The notes: generated by a model not told the origin, from the letters alone. Positions 1-14,585 are shown, counted from the first letter of the stretch. The stretch is 64,000 nt of DNA from an uncultured Nitrospiraceae bacterium (GCA_963706325.1 CAVPLT010000004.1:1-64000); one strand, 5' to 3'. Translations and numbers: made by a program.

Positions 1-124
1 GCTGGATGCGTGGATACGGAAGAACACCGTGATGCCTATGCCACCAAGACGCGCATAGATCGCGAGATACGAGGCGGACGGGGTGCCAGTCGTGGCCCCG
101 CCGCCGCCCAGCTTTGTTAGCGGG

Positions 125-253
125 CTATTGCAGAAGATTAAGGGTCAATATACCCAAGGCGAGAACGAGACTCGCCACTGCGAGCCAGCGGTACCAGCGG
201 TTATTGTAGTCGGTCTTGTCGAAGGTGTCCGTGTAGCGATTGCGTCCGTTCAT
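125..253 (-). CDS. Small single-TM membrane protein, 42 aa (MNGRNRYTDTFDKTDYNNRWYRWLAVASLVLALGILTLNLLQ)
   Basis: Read by hand (below ORF-track cutoff); SD AAGGGAG before ATG, upstream TAGAAT -10-like box, C-terminal hydrophobic helix. Confidence 0.55.
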   Translation of the reverse strand: MNGRNRYTDTFDKTDYNNRWYRWLAVASLVLALGILTLNLLQ

Positions 254-326
254 CTGATTACTCCCTTGAGAGCCATTCTACGGCACAGTGTGGCATGAAA
301 AAAACCCCACGAAGGTCGGATTAAGA

Positions 327-356
327 TTGACAGCGAGGTGTATCTTTATATACCAT
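327..356 (+). promoter_or_regulatory. Sigma70 promoter of the XRE-integrase operon with palindromic operator in the spacer
   Basis: TTGACA 327-332, 18-bp spacer, TACCAT 351-356; imperfect palindrome GGTGTAT-CTTT-ATATACC 337-354. Confidence 0.6.
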
Positions 357-361
357 CCATT

Positions 362-574
362 ATGCTCACACAGTTGAAGAAATGGCGAGAAAAGCGGGGG
401 TTCTCCGTGCGCAAGCTTGGGGAATTAGCAGGTGTTACCCATGTGACTGTCGTGCGCATGGAATCAGGCAAGCTGGACCCGCGCCTCTCAACGGTCCTCA
501 GACTGTGTAGGGCATTAGGCATTACGGTGGATCAACTGTTAGGCGTGGCCACTGAGCCACGGAAAGGTAGGTAG
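362..574 (+). CDS. XRE/HTH_3 family transcriptional regulator
   Basis: LKKWREKRGFSVRKLGELAGVTHVTVVRMESGKLDPRLSTVLRLCRALGIT is a canonical Cro/CI-type HTH; ATG 362 chosen because the ORF-track start lies inside the promoter. Confidence 0.9.
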   Translation: MLTQLKKWREKRGFSVRKLGELAGVTHVTVVRMESGKLDPRLSTVLRLCRALGITVDQLLGVATEPRKGR

Positions 575-578
575 TCCG

Positions 579-1697
579 ATGGGACTGACTAGACGGAAGG
601 ACAGCTATTATGTCGAGTTTCGAGTGCTCGACGATGGCAAGGCGCTGAGGCTAGCCCATGAAGGTGCGGGGGGAAGGCTGAAGCGGTGGAAAGTTGGATC
701 GCTCAATAAGACCCTGGCTAAACAACACGAGTCGATCATTAAGACGGACTTGATGAAAGGCAGCATTACAACTGACCAGGCCAAACTTGTTCGGTTTAAG
801 GAATGGGGATTTCGCTACTTAGAGCTGGAAGAGGTTCGGCGCTTACGGTCTTTTCGAGACCGAGATAGGATTCTCAGGCACCACCTAATACCCTATTTCG
901 GCGCTTTGGCCTTGTCTGAGATCAAGCCAGACGACGTTGAGCAGTATCGAAGCCAGCGGCGTAAACAAAATGGTGACGCGCCTACACTCCAGACCGTAAA
1001 CAATGACCATATTATTCTGAAGCATTGCCTCAACGTAGCGATTCGACGCGGATTGCTCGTGAGTAATCCCGCTTCCAAAGTGCCCCTACCGGACCCTCAT
1101 AATGAACGAGACCGTGTGTTAACAGAGGGTGAGTGGGAACGCTTGCACGAGGCAGCGGCTCCGCACCTCAAGCCCATGCTCCTGCTGGCCTACCATCTAG
1201 GGCAACGCTTTGGAGAGATTACTAATTTGACGTGGGACCGCGTGGACCTTCAGCGGGGGTTCATTACCCTGCGTTCCATTGATACTAAGACTAAAAAGGC
1301 GAGACAGGTTCCACTCACACCCGCCGTACGGTTAGCCTTGAGCGAGTTAGCCAAGGTGCGGCGTCTGAATACGAACCATGTCTTTGTGTATGATGGGCAA
1401 CCCATTAAGAGCATTAAGACTGCATTCAGGAGAGCTAAACGGGTCTCGGGGGTCAATGGCTTCCGCTTCCATGACCTACGACATTGTGCAGCAACCAACC
1501 TGAGAAGGGCTGGAGTTGATACAGCAACGGCGATGCGGATTGTGGGTCACAAGTCCGAGAAGATGTGGAAGCGGTATAATGCGATCGACGAGAAGGACCT
1601 GACCAAGGCAGCGTCTAGACTGAACACTTACCTCGAAGCTAACACGCTAATAACACCTGCTGATTCCGCTCAATCTTCCAACTCTGTAAGTGCTTGA
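579..1697 (+). CDS. int: Tyrosine recombinase / phage integrase (left element)
   Basis: Catalytic motifs GQRFGEI (R), TKT (K), FHDLRH (HxxR), VGHK, KRY (Y); ends 5 bp from the tRNA 3' end. Confidence 0.95.
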   Translation: MGLTRRKDSYYVEFRVLDDGKALRLAHEGAGGRLKRWKVGSLNKTLAKQHESIIKTDLMKGSITTDQAKLVRFKEWGFRYLELEEVRRLRSFRDRDRILRHHLIPYFGALALSEIKPDDVEQYRSQRRKQNGDAPTLQTVNNDHIILKHCLNVAIRRGLLVSNPASKVPLPDPHNERDRVLTEGEWERLHEAAAPHLKPMLLLAYHLGQRFGEITNLTWDRVDLQRGFITLRSIDTKTKKARQVPLTPAVRLALSELAKVRRLNTNHVFVYDGQPIKSIKTAFRRAKRVSGVNGFRFHDLRHCAATNLRRAGVDTATAMRIVGHKSEKMWKRYNAIDEKDLTKAASRLNTYLEANTLITPADSAQSSNSVSA

Positions 1698-1699
1698 TT
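1687..1699 (-). promoter_or_regulatory. IHF-consensus site in left att arm
   Basis: AATCAAGCACTTA matches WATCAANNNNTTR. Confidence 0.55.
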
Positions 1700-1702
1700 C
1701 AT

Positions 1703-1779
1703 TGGTGCCCCCGGCCTGAATTGAACAGGCGACCTTCGGTTTAGGAAACCGCTGCTCTATCCAACTGAGCTACGGGGGC
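1703..1779 (-). tRNA. tRNA-Arg (CCT)
   Basis: Folds as a 77-nt cloverleaf: GCCCCCG/CGGGGGC acceptor, anticodon loop TTCCTAA, T arm GCCTG-TTCAATT-CAGGC, encoded CCA. Confidence 0.97.
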
Positions 1780-1780
1780 A
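1741..1780. repeat. att direct repeat, left copy (tRNA-Arg 5' half)
   Basis: 40 bp identical to 27888-27927. Confidence 0.95.
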
Positions 1781-1791
1781 ACGTTATTTTT

Positions 1792-1804
1792 CAATAGCTT
1801 GATA
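1792..1804 (-). promoter_or_regulatory. IHF-consensus site in island att arm
   Basis: TATCAAGCTATTG matches WATCAANNNNTTR. Confidence 0.55.
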
Positions 1805-1832
1805 CTCTATTGGCCAGCTGATGAATTGTCTA
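1804..1832 (-). promoter_or_regulatory. Putative island-supplied sigma70 promoter for tRNA-Arg, embedded in the integrase 3' end
   Basis: TAGACA (1832-1827), 17 bp, TAGAGT (1809-1804); the -10 box contains the integrase stop codon; 24 bp upstream of tRNA +1. Confidence 0.6.
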
Positions 1833-2919
1833 GTGTCATTACCGTGTCCGCTTGCTGAAGGTATTTATCTAACTTTGCAGCGGCCAGCGTCAAGTCACGT
1901 TCTTCTATAGAATTGTATCGCTTCCACATCTTCTCAGATTTATGCCCTATGATCCTCATGGCAGTGGCCGTGTCCACACCTGCCCGGCGAAGGTTGGTTG
2001 AGGCACAGTGCCGAAGATCGTGAAACCTGAAATCCTGAAGCCCTGCGGCTTTCAGCGCTGACTTGAAGGCCCTAGAAACCCTTTGAATAGGCTTGCCCTT
2101 GTATAGGAATACCCGGCTTGTCTCAAGCCTTCGCACTTTAGCGAGTTGCTGAAGTGTGGTTCTCACTGCTGGGGTCAACGGAACCTCCCGGCGCGTATTG
2201 GTCTTGGTGTCCACTGCTCGTAACAGAATGAACCCTCGCCTGAGGTCTACTCGGTCCCAGGTCAATTCTATAATCTCGCTGAACCGCTGTCCCAAGTGAT
2301 AAGCAAGCAACAATATCGGGCGGAGGTGAGGCTTGGCGGCCTGATAGAGTCGTGGCCATTCATCCTCACTTAGGACTCTGTCCCGCTCGTTTCGCGGGTT
2401 GGGCATGGCTACCTTTGCCGCTGGATTGCTGGCCACCAGTCCACGTCTCACAGCGATATTGAGGCAATGTTTTAGTGCCGTGTGGTCGTTGTTCACGGTT
2501 TGGAGGCTGGCTGGTTGGCCATCCTTCCTCAATCGCTGAGCGCGGTAGGTCTCAATGTCCTGCGGCCTGATCTCGCTAACAATTTTCCGACCGAAAAAGG
2601 GCATCAGCTGACCGGTGACTCGTTCCACTCGGTCGCGATAAGTCCTAAGCCCTTTCACTTCCTCCAGGCGGAGGTACTGTTTTGCCCACTCGCTGAACAG
2701 TATGGGCCTGGCTTCCTCAGTGAGTATTTTCCCAAGAAGGAGATTGGTTTTGATGGCCGCTTCCATGTCTCGCGCAGCCGTCTTGTTAAGAGTGCCAACC
2801 TTCCACCGTTTGAGCCTCGCACCAGGCACACCCGACGCCAGGCGAAGAGTCTTGCCGTCTTCAGAGGTGAGGACACGGAACGCGACGTAATAGCTATCAG
2901 GTCGTTTCGTCAATCCCAT
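1807..2919 (-). CDS. int: Tyrosine recombinase / phage integrase (island)
   Basis: GQRFSEI, TKT, FHDLRH, IGHK, KRY; start MGLTKRPDSYY chosen by alignment to the paralogue at 579 and SD GAGAGGG. Confidence 0.95.
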   Translation of the reverse strand: MGLTKRPDSYYVAFRVLTSEDGKTLRLASGVPGARLKRWKVGTLNKTAARDMEAAIKTNLLLGKILTEEARPILFSEWAKQYLRLEEVKGLRTYRDRVERVTGQLMPFFGRKIVSEIRPQDIETYRAQRLRKDGQPASLQTVNNDHTALKHCLNIAVRRGLVASNPAAKVAMPNPRNERDRVLSEDEWPRLYQAAKPHLRPILLLAYHLGQRFSEIIELTWDRVDLRRGFILLRAVDTKTNTRREVPLTPAVRTTLQQLAKVRRLETSRVFLYKGKPIQRVSRAFKSALKAAGLQDFRFHDLRHCASTNLRRAGVDTATAMRIIGHKSEKMWKRYNSIEERDLTLAAAKLDKYLQQADTVMTLDNSSAGQ

Positions 2920-2964
2920 TATTCGCCCTCTCACTCCTCCGAAGCTGCTAGAGCATGGTCCTTG

Positions 2965-3183
2965 TTATCCCTGAGTCGCGCGACCTTCCAGAAGCTTCTG
3001 CGTCTCGACCCGTGCCTTAACCGTGTGTTGATCGATCCACTTGTCGAGGTCATGCTGCTTGAATTTTACGAGGCGTCCCACCTTCACGAAGCCAAGCTTC
3101 CGTGCCGATACCCAGCCGTAGAGGGTCAATTTTGATATGCCTAGATACTCCGATGCCTCATCCATTGTCAAAAGCCTGCTCAT
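2965..3183 (-). CDS. xis: Excisionase / HTH_17 DNA-binding protein
   Basis: MSRLLTMDEASEYLGISKLTLYGWVSARKLGFVKVGRLVKF; SD GGAG; directly upstream of int. Confidence 0.88.
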   Translation of the reverse strand: MSRLLTMDEASEYLGISKLTLYGWVSARKLGFVKVGRLVKFKQHDLDKWIDQHTVKARVETQKLLEGRATQG

Positions 3184-3458
3184 GATCACTCCAGGAAAAT
3201 TTTGTTGTCTGTATCCCGCCGAGATCTGTCCGATTCCCGCCCTACATCCATGCCGCCTACCAGACGGCCCGGGTTGAAGAGAATTCCACAGCGGGTGCGA
3301 CCCGTGGCCGGAGAGCAGGGGACAGGCCTTCCCGGTCCCCTCCCGGTCTCGCCCCTCCAGGCCTGCCCACTGCGAGAGCCCCGTGCCGCCTCTTCTTCTA
3401 CGCCCCACCCTCGGTTTGTGAAGGGTGGGGCTACATAGTCTTGAAGAAGGAGGCGGAC

Positions 3459-3963
3459 ATGTCCGTTGATAGTTCTCTCGGTTCCTCGAACGGTGGACGG
3501 CCATTGAACCCGGTTCGGAAATACGGTGTACCTCGGTACCGCGTCACGCTCGTGCGGGAGGGCCGTGCCATTCCGGCGGCTGAGTCGGTGCATACATCGG
3601 AGGGCGCGGCCGCGATCCTCCGACCCTTGTTCGCCGGCTTGGACCGGGAGCAGTTCCTGATCTGCGGCCTGGATGCGAAACATGGGCTCATCGGCATCAA
3701 TGTCGTCTCCACCGGGTCGCTGACCTTGGCCATCGTCCATCCGCGCGAAGTGTTCAAGCCGCTGATCCTGATGAATGCCGGCGCCTGGATCTGTGCCCAC
3801 AATCACCCCTCCGGCGATATCACGCCGAGCCCAGAAGATCGTGTCCTGACCAAACGGCTGCGCGAAGCTGGCAGACCTGTTCGGCATTCCGCTGCTCGAT
3901 CATCTCATCCTCGCCGAAGAACGCTACTACAGCTTCGCCGACCAGGGCTGGCCCGGCGCTTAG
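3459..3963 (+). pseudogene. radC: RadC-like JAB domain protein, +1 frameshift near 3870
   Basis: VHPREVFK and AHNHPSGD motifs; the expected C-terminus DLFGIPLLDHLILAEERYYSFAD continues in another frame to TAG 3963. Confidence 0.88.
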
Positions 3964-4088
3964 CGGAGCAGCCGCAACACCCAGGCGGCTCCTGCGGCCA
4001 CTAGCGCGAGTCCAATCGCCGCCGTCCCCCAGGCGACCAGGTCGGTCGCCAACGCATTGCCGATGGTGTGAATTTGTTGCGCCGTCAT
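3960..4088 (-). CDS. Leaderless coat-protein paralogue, 42 aa (MTAQQIHTIGNALATDLVAWGTAAIGLALVAAGAAWVLRLLR)
   Basis: SD AAGGAG; shares DLxxWxxAxIGxAL with mature pVIII at 4178-4393; basic C-terminus. Confidence 0.7.
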   Translation of the reverse strand: MTAQQIHTIGNALATDLVAWGTAAIGLALVAAGAAWVLRLLR

Positions 4089-4143
4089 CCTTGCATCTCC
4101 TTCGCCGTTGCCCTACTCATGCTGTCGATGTGATGCGAGAAAG

Positions 4144-4169
4144 GAGGCAGGCTGCTGCCAGCCTGCCTC
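4144..4169 (-). terminator. Hairpin terminator after the major coat gene
   Basis: Perfect 11-bp stem GAGGCAGGCTG/CAGCCTGCCTC, 4-nt loop, short CTTT tail. Confidence 0.65.
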
Positions 4170-4177
4170 GATGGGCC

Positions 4178-4393
4178 TTACCCGCCCACAATCGCCTTCA
4201 CGCGCTTAAAGGCATAGATGGCCAACGCCACCCCAATCAGGGCCGCCGCCCACAAGAGCAGATCGGCCCGCACCGTGGCCACATCTGCGGAGACCGGAAA
4301 CAACTGCGCGAACGACAACGCCGGTACGCCCAATGCGAAGACCAACGCCATCAGGAACCCGGTGACTCCCTTCACCCATCCCACACCCTTCAT
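4178..4393 (-). CDS. Inovirus major coat protein (pVIII-like) precursor
   Basis: 71 aa: signal peptide ending ALSFA, 42-aa mature chain with acidic N-terminus, TM helix and basic tail FKRVKAIVGG; very strong SD AAGGAGG. Confidence 0.88.
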   Translation of the reverse strand: MKGVGWVKGVTGFLMALVFALGVPALSFAQLFPVSADVATVRADLLLWAAALIGVALAIYAFKRVKAIVGG

Positions 4394-4466
4394 AGAGCAC
4401 CTCCTTGTGCTATCTGGTGGAGTCGTCCACCCGCGCCGCCGGAATCCTCGCCGACGGACGAGCGCC

Positions 4467-4574
4467 TCAGTGACTCTGAGGCAGAATCAGTTTGATGATC
4501 AGCCCCACGGCAAAGCCGCCGAGCCAGAAGATCGCCGTGAAATAGGTCATGGCTTCAATCGCCGGCAGGTCCAT
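4467..4574 (-). CDS. Minor coat protein-like (pVII/pIX-like), 35 aa (MDLPAIEAMTYFTAIFWLGGFAVGLIIKLILPQSH)
   Basis: SD AAGGAG, single TM helix, directly upstream of pVIII. Confidence 0.7.
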   Translation of the reverse strand: MDLPAIEAMTYFTAIFWLGGFAVGLIIKLILPQSH

Positions 4575-4860
4575 AGAACACTCCTTCGCCAATCACCCGC
4601 ATCGATCCGTCCTCGTAGACTTCCGAGACCGATCATTCCATAGCGTCCGGTAATCTGCGCGGCCGTCAGGATCTCGCCGCTGTCCAAGAGATAGCGCCAG
4701 CCTTGACGGTTCGCTGATGAGCCTGCCCCGCCGAGGATGCGCACGGTTCGCTTCGGTGGTGGCGGAGTTGCTGGCGCAGATGGAGACAGACGCCCCAATG
4801 GATTCAGCAGACTGCCCGGCGCCGATGAGGCAGACGGAGGCAGACGTCGTGGTGCCACGG

Positions 4861-5568
4861 TCACTCCAGTCGCAGGGGTGTCCCTTGGTGCTGATTCAAC
4901 GACGACCAGGGCCGCCAGGCCATGAGGGCGATGGCAAAGAGTCCCGCGGCAATGCCGATCGCGATTCGCGCCGATTTGAAGATGGTATGGCTCCGCTTCT
5001 CTTCCTGGATCGCCGCCGACGCATAGCTCGAATAGTAGGCGTAGATCGCCGGTGAATAGGTCCCGACGAAGGCGCGAATGGTCTCGTGATCTTCGGGATT
5101 CCCCCGCACCTTGCCCTGATACTTTTTCGACAGGCCGACAAAGGCCAGCTTGCGAAACTTCACCGTCGCTTCGATCAGTCGCGTGACGCCTTGCGACATC
5201 TGCCGAAAATCCTGACTCATGAGCAGAATATCCACGCCGTAATGCCGATGGGTTTCGAGCCAGCGCAGCAGACCCGGCTCGACCTTCTGCATCGACCGAA
5301 AGACGGTTTGCGCTTCGTCGATAATCACCGCCGAGCCCGGCTCGACATGTGGAAAGGCCTGGAGGACTTCGACGGAGTCTTTCCAGATCGTGATCTGTTG
5401 TTCGAGGGCTTCGAGCTCAATGCCCGTGAACAACGCCAGCCGATCCAGATAAATCCCATCCACCGCGATATAGAGTCGTCGGCCTTGCCGGACCCACGGC
5501 AGGAACTTTTCGCAGATCGCGTGATAGGACTTCCCGGAGCCTGGCACGCCTTCATACAGTTCGATCAT
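4861..5568 (-). CDS. zot: Zot / pI morphogenesis ATPase; C-terminus probably continues in another frame to ~4600
   Basis: N-terminal Walker A GVPGSGKS, Walker B VIIDEAQ, HRHYGVDILLMSQ, TM helix; Pro-rich continuation in ORF 4547-4864. Confidence 0.93.
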   Translation of the reverse strand: MIELYEGVPGSGKSYHAICEKFLPWVRQGRRLYIAVDGIYLDRLALFTGIELEALEQQITIWKDSVEVLQAFPHVEPGSAVIIDEAQTVFRSMQKVEPGLLRWLETHRHYGVDILLMSQDFRQMSQGVTRLIEATVKFRKLAFVGLSKKYQGKVRGNPEDHETIRAFVGTYSPAIYAYYSSYASAAIQEEKRSHTIFKSARIAIGIAAGLFAIALMAWRPWSSLNQHQGTPLRLE

Positions 5569-5649
5569 CGCACTACGCCTCCAGAGCAGCCAGATGGTGC
5601 CCGGCCAAGATCGCCGTCCATCCATAGGCCACACTGACTGGTGTCATGT

Positions 5650-5925
5650 TCATGAGCCCCACCGCACAAACGGAATGGTTTGCAGAATGAACCGGGTTCC
5701 CATGGCGCTCGCCACGATGGCCAGCGCCTGACTCATGCCCGTCGCGCCCAGCACCCACGCATATTGATCAGGAATGACCGGCAGGGTGAGCCCTGCCGTG
5801 CCCATGGTGCTCAAGGTGCTGTCCGCCACGGAAAGCAGGGAATCCCAGATGCCCAAGCCCCAATCGGTGAGCGAGAAGAAGAACTCCTGCAGCCAGCAAT
5901 AGATGAGGGTCAGAATGGCCGTCAT
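5650..5925 (-). CDS. pVI-like minor coat protein (DUF2523-like)
   Basis: 91-aa hydrophobic protein ending RFILQTIPFV, between pIII-like and Zot; ATGA overlap with the upstream gene. Confidence 0.8.
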   Translation of the reverse strand: MTAILTLIYCWLQEFFFSLTDWGLGIWDSLLSVADSTLSTMGTAGLTLPVIPDQYAWVLGATGMSQALAIVASAMGTRFILQTIPFVRWGS

Positions 5926-7150
5926 GTGGTCTGTCCTCCTCCCACGAAGATGATGCGATAGGCGGCGAAGGAGGCAATGGCGATCACGAGCGTGCGGAGC
6001 ACGGTGAAGAACCAGGCCCACTGATTGAAGTCCACTTGCTGGTTGCCGAAGAAGGCCGAGGGGAGCGCAATCACCGGCAACGTCGAGGGCCAGGTCAGGG
6101 ATTTGAGGAGATTCAGGGTGCTGAGCAATCCGCTGCGTCGCCCAGATCGTTTGATGCGCTTGGAGGACGGTTCCGAAGGTTCGATTCTCATGTGTCCCTG
6201 CTGTAGCATGACGTGGTGGCTTCCGTCTCTTCTTGCTTGCGTCGTGGAGCCGTCGGGATTCTGGGTAGTTGTTGTGGTCGTCGTGGTGGTTTGCTGTTGC
6301 GTGTTCTGCTGCGGGGTACTTGCCGGAGGCGCGACACTATCGACGACGATGATGTCTCCCGCAGGCACGGGCTTCGGCTTGACGGTCGTCGGCATCTCAC
6401 TCGGGGACGACAGGCTGCGAGACGGTCTTGTCTGCCGGTTGCGTCGTGCCGGTCGTGCCGACGGGATTGGTATGCTGCTCAATGGACATGCGGAGCCGTG
6501 CGGGACGGTCACGAGATACTGTTGGACCGCCTGCTGGGCGTCGGCGGGATCGAGCGCTCTTGTAGCGGCGGGAGCAGCCCGGGACACCATCCGATGGCAG
6601 ACGTGGACCGGCGACCGACCCAGGACCGTGACGAAGAAGTTGCCGGGAAAGCCGTGCGATGCTTGAAAGGCCGACGACCCAGGCATGCAGATATCGATCG
6701 CCGCGCGCAGGGACTTGCCGGCTGAACTGAATACTGCGTGGGTAATCGTATGAGGTCTGGCCAGTTGGAAAGGTCTGGGTACCAGCATTGTACTGCCACT
6801 TGCCGGTCGGCGGGGTGAGGCCGCCGTTTTGATCGCGGCGAGGTCCGGTTGCGAATAGTACATCTGGGCCAGAACCAATCCGGCGCCGACTCCGAGCGCC
6901 GCCCAGTCCGACTGGACCAGCCACTAATCGAACGGCGAAGGAGCTGGCGGAAGGAGCGAGCGCAGCCGTCGCGACTTGGGACGCCAAGGCCGACCGTTGC
7001 GCGGCCAGATAGGCGATGCGTTCCGCTTGGGCGACGACCCGCGAGTACTGCGTCGTCTCTAGGGCGAGCGATTCGCCCGGTGCAAGACAGAAGGAGACGC
7101 AAGAGTGCCCAGATGAATCCGAGATAATCGGTGAGAGACAACAGTTTCAC
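5922..7150 (-). pseudogene. pIII-like adsorption protein, multiple frameshifts
   Basis: Signal-like N-terminus at 7150, Ala/Gly-rich hydrophobic segment (RLVAGPVG), Pro/Thr/Gln-rich linker (QQQTTTTTTTTTQNP), C-terminal TM anchor; pieces spread over three overlapping ORFs. Confidence 0.78.
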
Positions 7151-7221
7151 AATCGTCCGACTCCGAGGCCGGTGAGGAAGGCCAGTAACAAGACCGCGAC
7201 AAGGATAATGGTGAGATCCAC
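7147..7221 (-). CDS. Tiny TM protein, 24 aa (MDLTIILVAVLLLAFLTGLGVGRL), minor coat-like
   Basis: SD GGGAGG, GTG start, GTGA overlap with the pIII-like start. Confidence 0.65.
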   Translation of the reverse strand: MDLTIILVAVLLLAFLTGLGVGRL

Positions 7222-7242
7222 TGACCTTCCTCCCTCGGTCCG

Positions 7243-7506
7243 TTACTTCAAGACTTCCAATCCAGACAGATCGAAGAAGACCCGTCCGGTTTGTTCGAAC
7301 TTCCGCACTTCGATCGAGGCCCGGGCTTGCTTGCCTTCGGCTTGCTTACAGACGTCAATCAACGGCATCTGATCCTCCGGAATCCCCAACCGCAGAATCC
7401 CCGGATCTTTGCCCTTCACATAGAGATCCACCGATCTGAACACCTTGCCCTCCCGACTCCTCCGTTCCACATAGCCCTGTACCGCCCCCTCCGCTTTGAC
7501 TTGCAT
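7243..7506 (-). CDS. ssDNA-binding protein (pV-like), 87 aa
   Basis: SD AGGAGG before MQVKAEG; beta-rich OB-like pattern; size and position downstream of Rep. Confidence 0.75.
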   Translation of the reverse strand: MQVKAEGAVQGYVERRSREGKVFRSVDLYVKGKDPGILRLGIPEDQMPLIDVCKQAEGKQARASIEVRKFEQTGRVFFDLSGLEVLK

Positions 7507-7728
7507 CGTCGTGCACCTCCTGCATGAGTGAGTTGAATCGGAGTCAGCCAAGCGCCTGACCCACACGCCCCGGCCTTCAGACCGAGCTTTGGCGAGATAC
7601 TGAAATTCGGAGTCGCATTCCTGGCAGCTGACAAACAGGGCGCCCTTGACCCATCGGCAGGTCGCCCCATGGGCGCCACACCCGGGACACCCGCGTCGCC
7701 AGGCTCCGTTATGAAACTGTAAGGACAT
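7507..7728 (-). CDS. Small Zn-ribbon protein (CPGC...CQEC), in frame with the pV-like gene
   Basis: Two CxxC motifs; SD GGAGGAG inside the Rep 3' end. Confidence 0.5.
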
Positions 7729-8702
7729 AGGGCGTCCCTCTCCTCCGTTCCTTCAGCAGGGCGTAGTGCTTCTGCTTCCATTTCTTGGTCCCCGCATAGA
7801 TCAACTCCGTCAAAAATTGATCGCCTCGACAGGCCACCACGACCGCGAGCATCGACGCGACGGATTGCGCGAGCCAGGACGCCACGTCATCCAGCCGCTG
7901 CTGGATGCGTTCGACCACGAGTCGGCACCGCTTAAAGCCTTCGGTCAGGGCTTCCCACCAGGACAGCAATGGCGCCCGATACTTTTCGTACGATTCGGCC
8001 TCTCGCGTGGTCTCTCGGAAATCCACATAGGATCGGAGCACGCCCACGAGAAAGGCCCGCCAATCTTCGGCATCGAGCGTGAGGAGGGCCTTGGCGCAGG
8101 CTTGGGCCCGATCCTGTTTGAATTCCATTTCCCACCGGACTCCGTACGAGGCCGCGTCCTCCCGGCCTTTGGCCTGCAGTTCCAGCCGCTTGTCATAGAC
8201 CCGCAGCATGCTTTGGCTTTCCCGACTGCCGAAGTAGAGCGACTCTCCGGTTCGGACGCCTTCGCGATGATTCGAGGCTTGGATCACCTTGAATTGCTTG
8301 GACCGGCTCACGACCTGTCCGGCCTCCACGGCTTGCCGGACCGTCTCGACTGCGACAGTGGCCTCCCGGTCGTCCAGGGCCACATCGGTCCGTGTCACAT
8401 GGCCCTTCTGCGCGAAGATCCAGGCCAGGACCGTCTTGAGCTTGGTTTCATCCCACTGGGAGACAATCCCGGCCGAGAGATCCACATGCACTTCCTTCGG
8501 ATTGCGAGGCGCACCCGTCCCCAGTTTGCCGACGCCGGTCTTGCCCTGCGTCATGAGCTGGGCGACGGGATACCCGCGAAAGCCGGTCTCACTCTGGAAC
8601 CAGTCACCACCAATCAGTCTTGATCACGTCGTCCACCTCAGCCTTCGGGAGCGTGAAGGCCAGCCAATCGATCGTTTGAGTGAATCCTCCAGAACCCGTC
8701 AT
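7709..8702 (-). pseudogene. Rep_trans family rolling-circle replication initiator, +1 frameshift near 8620
   Basis: IDWLAFT at N-terminus (ATG 8702, SD AAGGGGG), TRTDVALDD, SLYFGSRES, LRVYDK, RWEME motifs. Confidence 0.9.
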
Positions 8703-8730
8703 TTCTTCCCCCTTGGCTTCCGTGCGATAG

Positions 8731-8770
8731 ACGCCCCCGTCTTACGCCCCCGTCTTACCAAGTCGGGGGC
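8731..8770 (-). other. Putative Rep_trans double-strand origin hairpin with 13-bp tandem duplication
   Basis: GCCCCCGACTTGGTAAGACGGGGGC then GTAAGACGGGGGCGT; resembles the CCCCC...TAA...GGGGG nick hairpins of Tn916/ICEBs1; just upstream of rep. Confidence 0.7.
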
Positions 8771-9023
8771 TGGTCGGCTGCGCGCGCCGCCGGCTTTCGC
8801 CGCCAGTCGCGCTGCGCCGTCCCGGCTTCCTCTTGGAGACGACAAAGGACGGACCATGTCCCTTGGTCTGCAGGGCTGCCTTCACCCGCTCCAGGTCGAA
8901 GCGCACAAATCGGCAGAATCGATCGACGGGAATCTCGCCTTTGCGGTAGGCCCGGCGGATCGACTTCGGGCTGACTTTGAGGACGGCGGCCAATTCATCG
9001 ACGGTCAACCATATCTGTTCCAT
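8742..9023 (-). CDS. HTH_17 / excisionase-like regulator of the phage module
   Basis: WLTVDELAAVLKVSPKSIRRAYRKGEIP...VRFD; SD AAAGGAG. Confidence 0.85.
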   Translation of the reverse strand: MEQIWLTVDELAAVLKVSPKSIRRAYRKGEIPVDRFCRFVRFDLERVKAALQTKGHGPSFVVSKRKPGRRSATGGESRRRAQPTSPRLGKTGA

Positions 9024-9100
9024 CACGTCTCCTTTAGGTTGCACGCACGATGTATGGCCGAACCATACGCATCGGCGTGCGGTGGTTAAAGAGGCCGGTT

Positions 9101-9140
9101 CGGGGACAGTAAGGGACAACAGGGGACACTAAGGGACACT
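9101..9140. repeat. Four tandem 10-bp repeats (consensus AAGGGACACT), operator/iteron-like
   Basis: cggggacagt aagggacaac aggggacact aagggacact. Confidence 0.75.
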
Positions 9141-9557
9141 ACGTCATCGCATGCAGAGCGTTCATCAGCACACGAAGAGAAGTCGGAAGCGGGTATGCAA
9201 AAAGGTTGTCTAAACTGACAGTTGTGAAGGGGACGCGATCAAAAGCAGCTCTAGGAGCGGTTATTCAGACATAGGGTTAAATCAGCGATGGAGATGAGAT
9301 AGGGCGAATGGAACTTGGGTGAGTCGAATGGGCGTGCCGCCGCGATCAAAATTATGGCGGAATATTACAAAAATCTGCCCTAGGGTCGAAATACTCGTCA
9401 GTAGGGCCTGACGGCTCTATTCATTGTGATGGCCGCAGGTCTCGGCAGTGGGCAGGAATAGCCAGTGGACCGGCAGGCAAAATCGGTGCAACGCAAAGCG
9501 TGGAGAAGTCGGCAGGAACACCACCAACTAGGCACGACTGCTCGTTGGGCACTAATG

Positions 9558-9955
9558 CGTTTATCTATCCGCCCTACAACACGGTGAATGAAGAATGGGT
9601 CTATAACCTATCTCAGCCGCAGTTCGAGGAATGGATTGGCAAGGTTGTTGGGAAGGAAGAAGAGGAAGCGAGTCGGCACGATAAGTGGTGCTGCATGATG
9701 CTTCCGAGGCTGCAATTGCTCAGATAGGTTTTGCGCGATGATGGAGCCCATCTTCATTTCGATCGATGACAATGAAGTTGCCAACTTGCGCGCGCTGATG
9801 GACAAGGTTTTTGGCGAGACCAATTTCATTGCTACGGTCATATGGCAGAAAAATTTCTCACCCAACAAATCTGCCAAATGGGCATCCGGCGACTTGAGCG
9901 CACGCAATCCATACAGTAAGGGTATTTATCCCATTACATGCCCCGATGGTCGCCA
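9558..9955 (+). pseudogene. Type III R-M methyltransferase (Mod) remnant
   Basis: YPPYNT (degenerate DPPY), SRHDKWCCMMLPRLQLLR, ISIDDNEVANLRALMDKVFGETNFIATVIWQK; in-frame stop, frameshift and truncation. Confidence 0.85.
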
Positions 9956-10471
9956 GTCTCCTCCAGGCTCTCGGGGCCTTCGCGAAGTTAAGGCGCTGAT
10001 TACGAGAGACCCCAGCCGAGTACAGCTATCGGCTTGCCGAGCATTCTCCTGGACATTCTGCCAAGGGAGCAGACAACCGAAACGACCTGTGCTAACGATC
10101 CCGCCCGCCTTCGCATGCTGAAAATCCCATTCTGTCCGGATCCCCAGCGGCCGGCCACCGATCGTTCCAGGAATATCTGTCAGGGCGGATTAAGCGAAGC
10201 ATGCGAAGAAGTGCCACCGAGCCCAGCACCATATTCCTGACATGGAGATCGCGAGGGGTGCCATACGCCACTAGGACTTATCCCAGGTGGATGGTGTACT
10301 GTTGTCACGTACCCTGTCAGATAATACGGGTGGTAGGTGGGAGGGAGGGATTGGAATGTTAATGCAATGTGTGCTTGGGCAAGCCCGTTGAAAAACAGAA
10401 TGAGCGCACGTTTGATCGCCACGTGTCGGTCGACTCGGAATTTCAATTCTTTTATAAGATGGGTGGTTTAG

Positions 10472-12796
10472 ATGAACATCACCGGACAGGAGCGCGCCGA
10501 GGAGGCCGTACCTGAAAGTGGCGCGATTTATTGCTCACTCATGGAGATCTTAGATCAGGGCTGCTGTGTGATCGAGGTGTTGTTCGAACAGGAGCAGCCA
10601 GTCGACTATCGATTTTTGGAGACTAATCCATCCTTTAATGAACAGACAGGACTCGCTCATCCTCGGGGCAAGCGCATGCGGGATCTGTCCCCTCAGCACG
10701 AACAACATTGGTTTGATGCCTACGGCCGTGCCGCGTTAACGGGCGAAGTTCAACGGTTCCAGAACGATGCCGTGCAGCCGGGGCGACGGTACGAGGTGTT
10801 CGCCTTTCGCGTCGGGAAGCCTGCAGATCATCACGTGGCGGTCGTGTTTACGGACATTACGGCACACAAACAGACGGAGCAAGCGTTGCAGGCCAGTGAA
10901 CGGCGTCTCCGCAGCATCATGGACCAACTTCCTGCCGGGGTCGGCATCATGGATAAGACGGGCGCTTGGCTGCTGACCAACGCACAGATGGAGAAACTAA
11001 GCCCTTCAGCGCTCCCCGGGCAGACAGCGGAGGGCGTGACGGACCCAACGTGGGACGAGCACGGCATACCGATATTGCCGGAGCAGTGGCCTAGTCGTCG
11101 GGCGTTGCGCGGCGAAACGGTCATCCCAGCGGTGGAGACGCGTCACGTCGGTGAAGCGGGGGAAACATGGACGCGAGTGAGCGCCGCACCTCTTCGTGAC
11201 GACACAGGAAACCTCGTGGGCGCCACCGCAATGGTGTACGACATCACGCACGAGAAACAGGCCGAGCAAGCGTTGCGAAGGAATGCTGAGACCTTTGCAA
11301 CACTGGTTGAACAATCACCGCTCGGTATTTACTCAGTCGATTCGCAGTTCCGGATCCGGCACGTCAGTGCGGGGGCCATGCCTGCGTTCCGCAATGTGCA
11401 GCCACTCATCGGTCGCGATTTTGCTGAGGTGATGCATACGCTCTGGCCAGACTCCTTTGCAAACGAAGCGATTCAGATCTTTCGCCGCACCCTGGAGACG
11501 GGGGAACCCTATTTATCACCAGGCCTCACAAACGTGCGCAAAGACATTGGCGCGATTGAGTCCTATGAATGGCAGACCATCCGCGTTACCCTCGCCGACG
11601 GACAATACGGTGTCGTCTGTTACTATTTCGATACGACACGTCTCCAGCAAGCCAACCAGAACATTCGCGAAAGTGAAGCGCGCTTCCGCGCCTTAGCCAG
11701 CGCCACAAAAGATTCCGTGTATCGCATGAATGCAGACTGGTCCGAGATGCGCCATCTGGCCGGACGGCAGTTCAACCCCGATGAGGGCCACCCTGGTGGC
11801 TCATGGATGGATCGAATCATTCCCGCAGAGGATCACCCGGACGTCCTCGAAAATATTCGACGAGCCATCGATTCTAAAAGCGTGTTTGAGCTTGAGCATC
11901 GTGTCATTCAGACGAACGGCAAAGTGGGCTGGGCGTACTCGCGAGCCATTCCGATTTTGGATGAGCAGGGTGAAATTCGCGAATGGTTCGGCGCAGCCAG
12001 CGATGCGACGGAACGGAAGGAGATCCAGGATCGACTTGAACAGTTTACGGAGGAACTGGAAGCACAAGTCACACACCGTACTGCAGAACTGCTTCAGTCA
12101 CAAGCCCAGCTACGGGCGTTGGGTACCGAGCTGAATCTTGCCGAACACCGCGAACGTCAACGTTTAGCGGAGGAACTGCACGACCATCTGCAACAGCTCC
12201 TGGTATTAGGCAAGTTGACCATCGGCCAACATAAGCGACGAGGCACGACCGACTCGTATTCGGCGGAAGCGATGGCGAAGGTCGATGACCTGCTTTCTGA
12301 CGCCTTGAACTATACTCGAACGCTGGTCGCTGAATTAAGTCCACCGGTGCTCACGGATCACGGCCTCGCGGCAGGATTGAGATGGCTCGGCAACTATATG
12401 AAGAAACATGAGCTAACCGTCACCGTGCTTCTTCCAGCTGAACAGATGCCGGCGTTACCTGCTGATCAGGACATGATGATATTCCAATCGGTTCGAGAAT
12501 TATTGATTAACTGCTCGAAGCACGCCGGAACGGGACAGGCGTCTGTCATGGTTGAGAAACAGGCCGATCTCCTTTGCATCAAGGTGATCGATCAGGGGGT
12601 TGGCTTTGAGAGGGCTGCAAATGCTCCCACTGGAGAACTCTCCTCCAAGTTTGGTCTCTTCAGCATCCGGGAACGGATGAGAGCGCTGGGTGGCTCCTTG
12701 AGTATTCAGTCGGCTCCTGGCATGGGTACCACGGCGACGCTGAGATTGCCGCTGACACCAAAACCCTCTCAATCAATTAAAATGCCCGTGCCTTAA
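10472..12796 (+). CDS. Multi-PAS sensor histidine kinase (HisKA_3, NarX-type), cytoplasmic
   Basis: Repeated PAS/PAC (DIT) motifs, ELHDHLQQ H-box, ELLINCSKHA N-box, DQGVGF, FGLFSIRER, GMGT. Confidence 0.93.
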   Translation: MNITGQERAEEAVPESGAIYCSLMEILDQGCCVIEVLFEQEQPVDYRFLETNPSFNEQTGLAHPRGKRMRDLSPQHEQHWFDAYGRAALTGEVQRFQNDAVQPGRRYEVFAFRVGKPADHHVAVVFTDITAHKQTEQALQASERRLRSIMDQLPAGVGIMDKTGAWLLTNAQMEKLSPSALPGQTAEGVTDPTWDEHGIPILPEQWPSRRALRGETVIPAVETRHVGEAGETWTRVSAAPLRDDTGNLVGATAMVYDITHEKQAEQALRRNAETFATLVEQSPLGIYSVDSQFRIRHVSAGAMPAFRNVQPLIGRDFAEVMHTLWPDSFANEAIQIFRRTLETGEPYLSPGLTNVRKDIGAIESYEWQTIRVTLADGQYGVVCYYFDTTRLQQANQNIRESEARFRALASATKDSVYRMNADWSEMRHLAGRQFNPDEGHPGGSWMDRIIPAEDHPDVLENIRRAIDSKSVFELEHRVIQTNGKVGWAYSRAIPILDEQGEIREWFGAASDATERKEIQDRLEQFTEELEAQVTHRTAELLQSQAQLRALGTELNLAEHRERQRLAEELHDHLQQLLVLGKLTIGQHKRRGTTDSYSAEAMAKVDDLLSDALNYTRTLVAELSPPVLTDHGLAAGLRWLGNYMKKHELTVTVLLPAEQMPALPADQDMMIFQSVRELLINCSKHAGTGQASVMVEKQADLLCIKVIDQGVGFERAANAPTGELSSKFGLFSIRERMRALGGSLSIQSAPGMGTTATLRLPLTPKPSQSIKMPVP

Positions 12797-13365
12797 GGCT
12801 TAGTTTAAAAGTTTTAGGGACCTGTACATCTGGACTGAATTTCTGCTGACATTGGGAGCAGGTGGCTATGTTCAACACATTCTTCTGAAACTCATTCGTC
12901 AAAAGAGACATGTCTTGATTGCGCACGAAACGTGTTCCTCGGTTCGACAAATGTTGGGTTACAACCCCGCGTGAAGTCCCATATTCATTCCTCCCATTTC
13001 TTGGAAGACATCTTTGTCAAGTGGTCTAGCTAAGATCGCTCGACCCACCGTACGGGTCTCGTGAGGGCGCCCATCATCGCGAGCATGCAGATCGCGAGAA
13101 GCAGCAGCAAGCTAGCGGCGAGAAAGAGCCATCCTTTCAATTACTGTGTGAGCATCGCGGAGAGTCTAGTGAACTCCTGGGCCGAACGGACCTAGGAAGA
13201 CCTCTAGCGGCTCGGCAAAATCGGAAGACTTCGCAGCGAAGACTCGCTCCCCCATAACTGTTTCCTGACAGCCTCGAATCCAAACAAACCGTTCGCACAT
13301 GTCCCGACCCAGAAAGCGTATACTCGGCTCTCGCTCCTAGGCCGTTAATGCTAGAAGGACGCCGC

Positions 13366-14139
13366 ATGACGCACCAAGAACGCATCCGTATTTTTGACTC
13401 TCAGGGTGAGGCCTATAAACAGGCCTTTCAAATCTTCCTTGACCACACCGACCAAAAACGCAACGCCAAGCAGTGGCTTCAAGCCGTGGTCGAGAGATTG
13501 CCAGCACGCAACGTGTTTATCGACGCAGGGGCCGGAAATGGAGAGGTCACGCAGGCGTTTGCTGGTGCCTTTACGCGCACCATTGCCATCGAGCCAAACG
13601 TCTATCTTCGGGAACAACTCGAACGGAGGCTCCCGAATGCAGAGGCCATTGGCCAACCGATTCTAGCCGCTCACCCTGCTGCGCAGGGGGACTTGGTCCT
13701 CTGCTCGCATACGTTCTATTACATTCCTCCCGAGGAGTGGGTCGCTCATCTCGAACGGCTGGTATTCTGGATGGCGCCAACGGGCGTGACCGTTGTGGTG
13801 TTGCAGCATCGGGAGAGTGGATGCATGAACATGGTGCATCACTTTTTCGGCCACCGGTTCGAATTGCGCCGGACCGCCGACGCTTTCCGGGCCAAGCATG
13901 GAGACCGCTATGATGTCGTGACGACGATCGACCCTGCCCACGTCCAGACGGCAGACCTGAACAAAGCCTACGCCGTCGCCGAATTTATGCTCAACTTGTT
14001 GGAGATTAAGTACGCCCCGACCAGGCAAGAGGTCGAAGCCTACGTGCAGGCCCATTTTGCCACAAAGGACGGGGGGTACCGCATCCCGGTCGATCAAGAG
14101 TTTCTCCACATTAGCCACCGACAAAGCTCGGATGGGTAG
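13366..14139 (+). CDS. Class I SAM-dependent methyltransferase
   Basis: FIDAGAGNG motif I, AIEPN, DLVLCSHTFYY. Confidence 0.9.
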   Translation: MTHQERIRIFDSQGEAYKQAFQIFLDHTDQKRNAKQWLQAVVERLPARNVFIDAGAGNGEVTQAFAGAFTRTIAIEPNVYLREQLERRLPNAEAIGQPILAAHPAAQGDLVLCSHTFYYIPPEEWVAHLERLVFWMAPTGVTVVVLQHRESGCMNMVHHFFGHRFELRRTADAFRAKHGDRYDVVTTIDPAHVQTADLNKAYAVAEFMLNLLEIKYAPTRQEVEAYVQAHFATKDGGYRIPVDQEFLHISHRQSSDG

Positions 14140-14585
14140 GCTTCAGGTGGTAGGAGGTGCAGTCAGGAGAGGGTGTCCTCGACGTTGGCCTGCAATCCCA
14201 ATGTTAAGGCGCTGGTCACATGCCGTGGTCAGATAACGTCCATGGCAAGAAGGATGACAGAGCGGCAGGTTCCCATTCGAGGAAGGACTGCGATGACGGC
14301 ACCACCAGCACAAGCCAGTCCATCGGCTCGACCTGTCCATAATTTCAGCAATGGGGCAACACCACGCACCTCCTCTGCGAAAATCTGGGATTCATCGTCA
14401 ACCGAGCGGGCTACGCTTTGAACGTGAAGCCCATCAAAATCGGGTTCCTTCGATTGCGGCGGTTCGTCGCCGAAATGTTTCATGTGGAAGGGTCGGTCTC
14501 GGTGATCGGATTGACCGCATCCGTGATTGCCCTCCTGCTGTTCCGCGTTGCCATTTTCTTGGTCATGGGATGGTAACGAGAACGT

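Follow-up and report, generated by a model that had tools for sequence, protein, structure and literature searches.

The occurrence of two sister integrase genes that converge from opposite sides on one tRNA gene is the principal finding of this analysis of a 64,000-nucleotide stretch of DNA (the window) from an uncultured Nitrospiraceae bacterium, and we regard it as very probable that the single native tRNA-Arg(CCT) gene is a hotspot occupied on both sides by islands of opposite polarity, with integrases of a single family. When an element integrates site-specifically into a tRNA gene, it is almost always the 3' part that it replaces, which leaves the host promoter in charge of the gene. Here, both islands are bounded by direct repeats of tRNA fragments that end at the anticodon loop, and in both the integrase gene stands beside the intact tRNA gene. 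The features that carry this reading are as follows.

579-1697, plus strand: int1, an ORF of 372 aa, tyrosine integrase of the canonical (3'-restoring) island
1703-1779, minus strand: tRNA-Arg(CCT), found by ARAGORN, identical in sequence to the native gene of the relative G023
1807-2919 (or to 2934), minus strand: int2, an ORF of 370/375 aa, tyrosine integrase of the reversed (5'-restoring) island
1701-1747: 3' half of the tRNA with the anticodon loop, repeat at the right end of the canonical island(s)
1741-1780: loop with the tRNA 5' half, left (int2-side) repeat of the reversed island
27888-27927: displaced native tRNA 5' half with the loop, far end of the reversed island, still adjoining the native upstream region
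1741-1747: anticodon loop, TTCCTAA on the tRNA strand, sole overlap (7 nt) of the 3'-half and 5'-half repeat blocks

The two integrases align end to end (229/367 residues identical, 62%; E 4e-177), as an earlier note on this DNA had claimed, and both lie above the curated cut-off of 27.1 bits for Pfam Phage_integrase (PF00589), int1 with 102.7 bits (E 2.5e-29) and int2 with 108.0 bits (E 5.8e-31). Residues R210, K237, H298, R301, H324 and Y333 are invariant across int1, int2 and a further copy, int1', and we take these to be the probable catalytic set (R, K, H-x-x-R, H/W, Y). The best matches among solved structures were chains of lambda Int (1z19, 1p7d and 1z1g; E about 3e-9 to 2e-8), and the N-terminal 70 residues gave no match to a Pfam arm-binding domain. 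The stop codon of int1 ends at 1697, which leaves 5 nt to the 3' end of the tRNA, and that of int2 (1807-1809) lies 27 nt from the tRNA 5' end, in agreement with the earlier description of both genes stopping within 30 bp of the tRNA on opposite sides; int2 is thus upstream of the tRNA gene and co-oriented with it, and shares 90% identity with integrases placed likewise in two further Nitrospira genomes (L014 and L015). Each integrase gene is preceded by a gene for a small DNA-binding protein.

338-574, plus strand: XRE-type HTH regulator (Pfam HTH_3 E 3.4e-13), directly upstream of int1
2965-3186, minus strand: excisionase-family HTH protein (HTH_17 E 8e-14, TIGR01764 E 1.3e-16), upstream of int2

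The same note had placed an XRE repressor before one integrase and an excisionase before the other, and the family matches bear this out. By its TIGR01764 match the protein beside int2 is a candidate recombination directionality factor; the neighbour of int1 is the XRE-type regulator, and a scan of contig C5 that covered left-island ORFs of 80 aa or longer found no member of the excisionase family.

On the right-hand side, the blocks at 1741-1780 and 27888-27927 form an exact 40-bp repeat (40/40), which begins precisely at the loop and ends 1 nt past the tRNA 5' end, and the displaced fragment lies upstream of the intact tRNA, both being on the minus strand. The island so delimited spans about 1741-27927 (26.2 kb). 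From 27928 onwards the flank is 91% identical over 3 kb to the closest relative, G023, where it abuts an intact tRNA-Arg(CCT) gene, and it is because the G023 tRNA stands directly against the flank that here follows 27927 that the right island can be assigned reversed, 5'-restoring polarity. The 26 kb between the 5'-half copies are missing from the corresponding G023 site, whose 5' side is therefore unoccupied, and the opposite side of that tRNA is taken up by a homologue of C5:329811-334226 (86%). A fully empty site was not seen, G023 itself carrying islands on the tRNA 3' side. The content of the right island is as follows.

3459-8554: RadC-like gene with a filamentous-phage-like module, inside the right island (Pfam RadC 9e-28)
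4178-4393: small membrane ORF, part of the filamentous-phage-like module
4861-5634: Zot-family ATPase (Pfam Zot 4.8e-30)
7709-8554: Rep_trans initiator (Pfam Rep_trans 7e-37)
8700-27700: cargo, namely a second HTH_17 protein, a PAS histidine kinase, a methyltransferase, a DPBB protein, Fe-S proteins, a NuoB-like protein, DUF1284 and many ORFs without a family

Small membrane ORFs are present in the phage-like block, in which no Pfam match to an inovirus-like coat or pIII family was obtained, and at most one module of the island is phage-like, since 26 kb far exceeds the size of a filamentous phage. Comparison of the DNA with five close relatives, which covered 1780-21000, gave matches mostly at the level of paralogues, with closer exceptions of 390 nt at 100% (G022), 1.2 kb at 86% (G012) and 0.8 kb at 84% (G014).

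On the left-hand side, a duplicate of the tRNA 3' half, which the earlier note had proposed to look for beyond the window, is present at C5:334393-334440 and adjoins DNA that in G023 sits on the far side of the same tRNA. It matches 1701-1747 at 47/48 positions, the difference being one extra C, and 1708-1747 equals C5:334401-334440 throughout (40/40). The window begins at the first base of contig C4; positions 1-1421 are 100% identical to C5:347471-348891, and the sequence is unique from 1422 on, so that the XRE gene lies within the exact repeat and only 1422-1697 of int1 are unique to C4. A second module, consisting of int1', a second tRNA-Arg(CCT) with a different 3' half, and int2' (pseudogene/fragments), lies on the stretch of C5 that runs from the displaced 3' half to the contig end. 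Owing to this module, the displaced 3' half may belong to either int1-type element, the assembly may combine two haplotypes, and the left side cannot be described as one simple element. The earlier note had proposed that two elements can share one attB, at which they may cross-excise; both repeat blocks do meet at one tRNA. The C5 tail (a miaA-like fragment, a sigma factor and a Ser/Thr kinase) had no DNA match in five relatives and is therefore accessory DNA, which does not by itself fix its placement. On contig C3, a canonical array holds a tRNA-Thr fragment in five copies.

Such a duplicated left side raises the question of whether int1 truly lies beside this tRNA copy, or whether C4 and C5 are strain variants, or the product of a wrong path through a repeat, in which case the mirror-image arrangement would have been created by the assembly. 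In favour of an artefact are the position of the exact repeat at the very start of C4, the fact that no other contig end of the genome abuts C4:1, the draft state of the assembly (8 contigs, 2% contamination), and its two tRNA-Arg(CCT) genes, where each of five other Nitrospira genomes has only one close match (87-88%) to this tRNA, with other full-length matches at 71-86%. Public contigs do not bridge the int1-tRNA-int2 junction: the best public sequencing runs held at most 0.47 of the sampled words and were all soil-metagenome contigs, and four of these (X1, X4, X7 and X9) gave short pieces that spanned neither this junction nor the window start and are uninformative on the former. We nevertheless consider an artefact improbable. 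The segment 1422-1702 differs from the C5 copy at about 26 positions, yet it still encodes an int1-type C-terminus and continues unbroken into the tRNA and int2. The layout of an int1-type gene and an int2-type gene converging on a tRNA is found independently on C5, with the different tRNA 3' half mentioned above, and even if two haplotypes had been assembled the convergent pair would be present in each. Moreover, when nine int1-like loci elsewhere were examined, three had a whole convergent tRNA and four only the 3' half with the loop (the remaining two had neither).

The same duplication could suggest that XRE, int1, tRNA, int2 and xis form one mobile cassette that has been duplicated or has moved as a block, its attP being the whole tRNA between inward-facing integrases, and that no separate islands meet here. 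Indeed, homology between C4:1-4454 and C5:347471-351906 extends through the tRNA and both integrases (90% over 4.5 kb), and if C5 and C4 were joined the DNA between the two tRNAs would run from a 5' half to a 3' half and could be closed into a whole tRNA. However, identity within the duplicated block is mosaic, standing at 100% over 1421 bp, at roughly 60-80% in int2 and at roughly 95% in xis-radC, a pattern that points to separate histories with recombination; at other loci an int1-like or an int2-like gene is found alone, with a half-tRNA junction and an arm pair of its own; and in four other genomes islands are bounded by 5' halves alone. Movement as a block is therefore, in our view, quite unlikely, more so than an assembly artefact, and occupation of one native tRNA gene from both sides is the reading that we retain.

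Under this two-sided occupation, the right island would have integrated in reversed polarity, its attP bringing a tRNA 5' half beside int2 that was joined to the resident 3' half, so that the native 5' half and the native upstream region would have been displaced by 26 kb. The left island or islands, with XRE and int1, would have integrated in the usual polarity and supplied the 3' half, the displaced native 3' half ending far to the left (C5:334393-334440) beside the conserved far flank. The working tRNA gene, being assembled from two flanking islands, is wholly mobile-element DNA. As the two repeat blocks overlap in 7 nt, we infer that the 7-bp anticodon loop is the crossover region for both integrases, which would exchange strands there with the stem arms as inverted core sites. 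At the attP-like junctions L021 and L022 tRNA identity ends inside the loop after 4-5 nt, so that in some members of the family the crossover may cover less than the full loop. Zhao and Williams, in 2002, reportedly also tied polarity reversal to the symmetry of the anticodon stem-loop.

Around this core, a recurrent set of short motifs was found.

1641-1656, plus strand: int-proximal candidate arm pair AACAC-N6-AACAC, inside the int1 3' coding end, 89 nt from the loop
1833-1848, minus strand: int-proximal candidate arm pair GACAC-N6-GACAC, inside the int2 3' coding end, 90 nt from the loop
27737-27752, minus strand: int-distal candidate arm pair GACAC-N6-AACAC, 136 nt from the loop copy at 27888-27894
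1687-1699, minus strand: match to the IHF consensus only, overlapping the int1 stop and covering the family-conserved motif TAAGTGCTTGA
1792-1804, minus strand: match to the IHF consensus only, between the int2 stop and the tRNA 5' end
1804-1832, minus strand: weak promoter-like site TAGACA-17-TAGAGT (9/12 consensus positions), overlapping the int2 stop

The pattern RACAC-N6-RACAC has four matches in the window against 0.38 expected, a number reached in 0/100 shuffles, and three of the four are the pairs at 1641, 1833 and 27737; no core-like site was seen near the fourth (20389-20404). The sole pair in 19 kb of C5 (334573-334588) is again distal, 133 nt from the loop, and the C5 module has two pairs, the AACAC pair on the int1 side being kept both in this copy and in int1-like loci elsewhere. 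An independent 9-kb island in G042 has three pairs (0.07 expected), the distal one 134 nt from the loop. Pairs are always in the orientation of int, at 89-90 nt from the loop when proximal (five cases) and at 133-136 nt when distal (three cases). This regularity makes them candidate arm-type Int sites on both sides of the core, which each integrase is predicted to use at fixed distances. Both attPs have the same layout, in which int is followed by the proximal pair, then after about 90 nt by the loop and after about 135 nt more by the distal pair, and this single scaffold is flipped as a whole relative to the tRNA.

The IHF consensus WATCAANNNNTTR has three matches in the 64-kb window against 0.96 expected. 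Two of these three flank the tRNA, and the assertion that each integrase has an IHF-like site is upheld to that extent, but both are on the minus strand and we have rejected them as mirror-image sites; any binding of IHF there is a prediction from the consensus. At 1792-1804 the consensus is not kept in most relatives, where TAAGTnnTTGA stands instead, and the match is absent from the C5 copy. Promoter-like sites numbered three in the region against 1.2 expected, and TAGACA-17-TAGAGT may tentatively be put forward as a candidate island-borne promoter from which the rebuilt tRNA could be expressed. A TTGAC-like -35 element follows the arm repeat at many Arg-CCT loci and not at Arg-TCT loci.

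The split in orientation extends to the whole family. Among 77 related Nitrospira loci, 56 have a tRNA just downstream of int on the same strand, as int2 does (35 Arg-TCT, 16 Arg-CCT, 4 Gly-CCC and 1 Leu-CAA); five are convergent, as int1 is, eight have no tRNA within 200 nt, five have too little downstream sequence and three lack a C-terminal match. Displaced 5' halves were found upstream on the same strand at 9.1 kb (G042), 19.6 kb (G048), 24.5 kb (G049) and 32 kb (G046), i.e. in one of five Arg-CCT genomes and three of five Arg-TCT genomes; in three further Arg-CCT genomes a 5'-half copy is 122 kb off or on another contig, and in three of the ten genomes checked (G041, G047 and G050) none was found. 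A quick integrase tree was built from 48 rows, 31 of the 77 loci having been dropped (ORF shorter than 330 aa, longer than 420 aa or interrupted). In this tree int1 groups with L013 (SH-aLRT 95) and int2 falls in a clade of 38 rows (96), 34 of them 5'-side and four without a tRNA call; more distant relatives are 3'-side, and the node joining the int1 clade and two 5'-side clades lacks resolution. The orientation-labelled tree that the earlier note had called for thus shows int1 within a small clade of 3'-side members and int2 within a large one of 5'-side members, both from a single Nitrospira family, and, taken with the 5'- and 3'-half repeats, it agrees with the proposal that one integrase clade has both attP orientations at the anticodon stem-loop. 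That the copy at 27888-27927 was left behind when the tRNA was locally duplicated or deleted, with int2 upstream by chance and no reversed integration, is scarcely credible, for although short two-copy repeats have other possible origins and the crossover is inferred and not observed, the repeat has exactly the ends at loop and tRNA given above, the intervening 26 kb are missing at the G023 site, the distal arm pair lies at the expected 136 nt, and the layout recurs in G042, G046, G048 and G049.

Nitrospira are a key group of nitrite oxidisers, and their islands provide an integrase family whose two polarities can be studied side by side, at one target within one genome copy, the arms being conserved within 3 bp. 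This amounts to a natural experiment on what determines the direction of integration, which is likely to be set only by the orientation of the 7-bp overlap in a symmetric core. Bases 1-43 do not vary among the tRNA-Arg(CCT) variants seen, every difference falling within bases 44-77; a 5'-restoring element therefore fits any Nitrospira host unchanged, and this may explain the dominance of that polarity in the family. The system also bears on the takeover of the promoter of an essential-type gene by an element, and on annotation, since software that looks for islands by 3' fragments alone would overlook most of those that this family forms in Nitrospira. A more speculative extension, which we think less likely than not, is that islands of opposite polarity complete each other's leftover halves: a reversed island strands a native 5' half, a canonical island would integrate there and add a 3' half, and the converse would also occur. 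Every such junction would be a new whole tRNA gene and a new attB, so that arrays would grow outward in both directions without limit and the tRNA gene would be duplicated. The assembly does hold a pair of complete tRNA-Arg(CCT) genes, and beside each of them stand one int1-type gene and one int2-type gene. If this were true, a working tRNA gene would be wholly element-derived, its promoter included, and translation of AGG codons would be tied to the elements.

Reversed polarity at tRNA genes is already known, and the present case is a clear new example and a variant of it and establishes no new principle. Reversed-polarity islands have been described (Zhao and Williams 2002, J Bacteriol 184:859) and, in the Islander report, form a "5' tDNA fragment" class of 159/3919 islands, about 4% (PMC4383910); 5'-distal recombination is called "considerably less frequent" by Krupovic et al. 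2019 (PMC6563490). As in those islands, a displaced 5' fragment lies upstream here and the gene is completed by a 5' part that the island brings. The present case differs in that the reversed form is the majority in a whole Nitrospira integrase family (56/77 loci) and that a sister integrase of canonical polarity stands on the other side of the same tRNA copy. In the literature covered, which included few subscription journals and is weak evidence on this point, we found neither opposite-polarity sister integrases on one tRNA nor a description of these elements in Nitrospira.

The use of the anticodon loop also has precedents, in the "A" sublocation of tRNA sites (Williams 2002, Nucleic Acids Res 30:866, as cited in PMC4383910 and PMC8371274), in the 2083 anticodon-centred attP sites given in the Islander report (PMC4383910), and in a review of archaeal recombinases that follows the same logic (PMC8371274). 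In such sites, and probably here too, the 7-nt loop serves as the overlap and the stem arms as inverted cores, and in both cases the repeat ends at the loop; unlike them, one loop appears here to be used from both directions at one gene copy. Paired direct repeats at fixed distances on both sides of the core, an excisionase-family gene beside int2 and IHF-consensus matches near the core recall heterobivalent integrases and systems of the lambda type. Unlike lambda Int, the similarity of which is remote in sequence, these integrases have the putative proximal arm pair inside their own reading frame, and, unlike lambda-type systems with Xis, int1 has no excisionase gene beside it, its neighbour being an XRE-type gene; the scan of the remaining left island covered ORFs of 80 aa or longer. 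The pTN3-like integrases of Thermococcales plasmids (Cossu et al. 2017, in PMC8371274) have as attB the tRNA 5' half, where, according to that review, integration restores an uninterrupted tRNA gene, as it does here; they are archaeal, with no detectable close relationship to the Nitrospira family, and the review's passage on them mentions no opposite-polarity sister clade at the same gene. Finally, Islander counts 125 tandem arrays in which at least two islands occupy a single tRNA gene (PMC4383910); in them, as at the present locus, several islands share a gene and each has its own integrase and tRNA fragment. Whereas canonical arrays are one-sided and add fragments only, the Nitrospira array occupies both sides of the gene, and the junction of its canonical and reversed islands is a complete tRNA gene.

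The genome carrying the window (G000; 8 contigs, 4.24 Mb; contig C4 begins with the window's 64 kb) has two related tyrosine integrase genes converging on a single tRNA gene:

579-1697, + strand: int1, stop codon 5 nt from the 3' end of the tRNA
1703-1779, - strand: tRNA-Arg(CCT), called by ARAGORN
1807-2919, - strand: int2, stop codon 27 nt from the 5' end of the tRNA

The two proteins align over their full length (229/367 identical), both match Pfam Phage_integrase far over the cut-off and both have the residues that, judged from sequence, a working tyrosine recombinase should contain. An earlier note's claim that sister integrases converge on one tRNA is thus borne out, as is, by HTH-family matches, its placing of an XRE-type gene upstream of int1 and an excisionase-family gene upstream of int2. 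It had also given each integrase an IHF-like site within a mirror-image arrangement. The IHF consensus has three matches in the 64 kb against 0.96 expected, and two of these (1687-1699 and 1792-1804) do flank the tRNA; both are on the - strand, however, and therefore are not mirror images of each other.

The tRNA region was compared by BLAST with the whole genome and the sequences were then read. The anticodon loop, 5' half and one further base (1741-1780) recur exactly and in the same orientation at 27888-27927, and the 3' half with loop (1708-1747) recurs exactly at C5:334401-334440 (47/48 over 1701-1747, with one extra C), so that the two blocks overlap only at 1741-1747, the 7-nt anticodon loop. 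The displaced 3' half (C5:334393-334440) has six C residues rather than five in the acceptor-stem run, and the same six-C run is seen in a second genome, at a 3'-half junction beside an int1-like gene (L080). Of 40 relatives searched, G023 is the closest, sharing 91% identity over the 3 kb right of 27927. In G023 the flank homologous to 27928 onwards directly meets a tRNA-Arg(CCT) that is intact and matches the window copy at every base; on the other side of that tRNA lie approximately 14.5 kb, including another 3'-half copy, and then DNA 86% identical to C5:329811-334226. From this arrangement the native site is [C5 up to 334392]-tRNA-[C4 from 27928], and all between is insert. The 3'-half duplicate for which the earlier note had proposed looking upstream of the window is present on C5, adjoined by DNA homologous to that on the far side of the G023 tRNA, and the note's proposal that one integrase clade evolved both attP orientations is supported.

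Taken together, the repeats, the G023 comparison and the DNA matches in relatives show that the right-hand island is a 26.2-kb element of the rare, reversed polarity, with the native 5' half displaced. Compared with five close relatives, 1780-21000 gave mostly paralogue-level DNA matches, the exceptions being three stretches, of 390 nt (100% identity), 1.2 kb (86%) and 0.8 kb (84%). Besides int2, the excisionase and a RadC-like gene, the island has a filamentous-phage-like block, in which a Zot-family ATPase and a Rep_trans initiator are encoded, and its cargo includes a PAS histidine kinase, a methyltransferase and Fe-S proteins. The RadC-like ORF (3441-4004, +) matches only profile positions 2-98 of 121, and the gene looks frameshifted because the expected C-terminal motif (LLDH...) is found in another frame, at approximately 3870-3960. 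Within the phage-like block, a 318-aa ORF with a nine-threonine run (5922-6878, -) has no Pfam match and lies at the place in which the adsorption protein of a filamentous phage would be expected.

On the left, window positions 1-1421 are identical to C5:347471-348891, with 90% homology onward to 4454. This second module on C5 comprises an XRE gene, int1' (with 98% identity to int1), a second tRNA-Arg(CCT), also complete, with eight differences, all in the 3' half and with compensating T-stem changes, and then pieces of an int2-like pseudogene, an excisionase and RadC, beyond which unrelated accessory genes run as far as the contig end. Four other Nitrospira loci have a tRNA-Arg(CCT) identical to this second one. 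Three layouts would each fit: at least four elements alternating in an array, with two of the tRNA genes rebuilt; an assembly that took the wrong path through the 1.4-kb repeat; or two haplotypes assembled together. Public metagenome contigs gave no choice among these three. Under each of them an int1-type 3' end, a tRNA and an int2-type gene are adjacent, as is seen both in the unique stretch 1422-1702 and, independently, in the C5 module.

Alignment of the tRNA-upstream regions of related loci revealed a conserved AACAC-N6-AACAC within the integrase gene, at its 3' end, and RACAC-N6-RACAC was then searched for. The window has four matches against 0.38 expected, a number reached in 0/100 shuffles, and further matches lie on C5 and in G042:

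1641-1656, + strand: pair
1833-1848, - strand: pair
20389-20404, - strand: unexplained pair inside the 26-kb island
27737-27752, - strand: pair
C5:334573-334588: the one match in 19 kb of C5 (L001)
C5 module (L002): two matches, one per integrase 3' end
10-kb island of the Arg-CCT relative G042 (L090): three matches against 0.07 expected, at 662, 8263 and 9582

The proximal pair, on the integrase side of the anticodon loop, starts 89-90 nt before the loop, in the direction of the integrase gene, for int1, int2, their C5 counterparts int1' and int2', and G042; past the far-end loop copy, the start of the distal pair comes at 133 nt in the left island, 136 nt in the right island and 134 nt in G042. 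These matching positions indicate one attP layout in both elements, inverted whole relative to the tRNA. Because the anticodon stem is an inverted repeat, such a flip would keep the core sites and reverse only the 7-bp overlap, switching the tRNA half beside the integrase gene, which is the mechanism proposed here; the RACAC pairs would be bound by Int as arm-type sites. No tRNA-like core was seen within 300 nt of the pair at 20389-20404, which may be chance or the relic arm of an older nested element. In G042 a third identical pair (L090 8263-8278) lies approximately 240 nt upstream of the integrase start; in the window, a search upstream of int2 gave no exact counterpart.

The native upstream region went with the displaced 5' half, so the rebuilt tRNA must presumably be driven by the island. 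A sequence resembling a promoter, TAGACA-17-TAGAGT, overlaps the int2 stop codon, and TTGAC directly follows the second arm repeat in many Arg-CCT relatives, which hints at an island-borne candidate promoter; alternatively, the tRNA may be expressed by read-through from int2.

One genome per species was scanned for relatives of int1 and int2, giving 77 loci, nearly all from Nitrospira, which sort by nearest-tRNA position as follows:

56/77: int2-like, tRNA no more than 200 nt downstream of the integrase on the same strand (35 Arg-TCT, 16 Arg-CCT, 4 Gly-CCC, 1 Leu-CAA)
5/77: int1-like (convergent)
8/77: tRNA absent within 200 nt
5/77: downstream sequence too short
3/77: C-terminal match absent (L079 and L086 convergent by an ORF-based count)

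Nine int1-like loci were inspected by eye: in three the convergent tRNA is whole, two have neither this nor a 3' half with loop, and four have only the 3' half and loop followed by unrelated DNA, which from their sequence we read as attP or array junctions. Matching 5'-half junctions occur at three int2-like loci. Displaced 5' halves were sought in ten genomes. For the five Arg-CCT genomes, a copy lies 9.1 kb upstream on the same strand (G042), 122 kb off round the contig ends (G043) or on another contig (G044, G045), and none was found in G041; for the five Arg-TCT genomes, it lies upstream on the same strand at 19.6 kb (G048), 24.5 kb (G049) and 32 kb (G046), and none was found in G047 and G050. 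A quick tree built from 48 full-length proteins places int1 with L013 (support 95) and int2 in a 38-row clade (support 96), 34 of whose rows are 5'-side, the other four having no tRNA call (the contig ends, or no tRNA is within reach). Another small clade, also 5'-side, stands apart and more distant relatives are 3'-side; the tree gives no branching order for the three groups and therefore no count of polarity switches. In the tRNA-Arg(CCT) genes of 22 related loci, both G000 copies and G023, bases 1-43 do not vary, the differences among the six variants being confined to bases 44-77.

Both polarities are common elsewhere in G000. Integrase-family genes or fragments at C4:694929-695796, C4:596531-597040, C2:104111-104853 and C7:573935-574435 are upstream of and co-oriented with tRNAs (directly at Arg-TCT and Arg-ACG, approximately 160-200 nt off at Ser-TGA and Val-TAC), and convergent ones are found at Thr-TGT, Val-CAC, Leu-TAA and Lys-TTT. 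A second two-sided tRNA, tRNA-Pro(TGG) (C4:667830-667906, +, outside the window), has a co-oriented match upstream (667225-667815, +; 50% to int1 residues 179-372) and a convergent one on its 3' side (668285-668695, -). At the end of C1, tRNA-Thr(CGT) (C1:1247631-1247703) is cut by the contig end, and C1's final 42 bases, which lie inside this gene, appear at five places on the 81-kb contig C3 (20513-20553, 29612-29652, 32627-32668, 38766-38807 and 71716-71757), which also has integrase fragments of this family; this is probably a tandem array of canonical type, made up of four or five islands at tRNA-Thr, and it would link C1 to C3.

The literature consulted, which covered few subscription journals, gave no account of sister integrases with opposite polarity on a single tRNA copy, of a scaffold conserved but flipped, or of these Nitrospira elements. 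The observation itself is real; the principle of reversed polarity at the symmetric anticodon stem-loop is already known. Table 1 of the Islander report (PMC4383910) gives 159/3919 5'-fragment islands and 2083 anticodon-centred sites, and a passage in Krupovic et al. (PMC6563490), citing Zhao and Williams (2002), describes 5'-distal recombination as considerably less frequent. What appears to be new is the occurrence of both polarities side by side as a natural comparison, an arm architecture conserved to within 3 bp and the dominance of reversed polarity across a whole integrase family. The pTN3-like archaeal integrases, in the section of PMC8371274 that concerns them, use a tRNA gene's 5' half, as does the int2 island.
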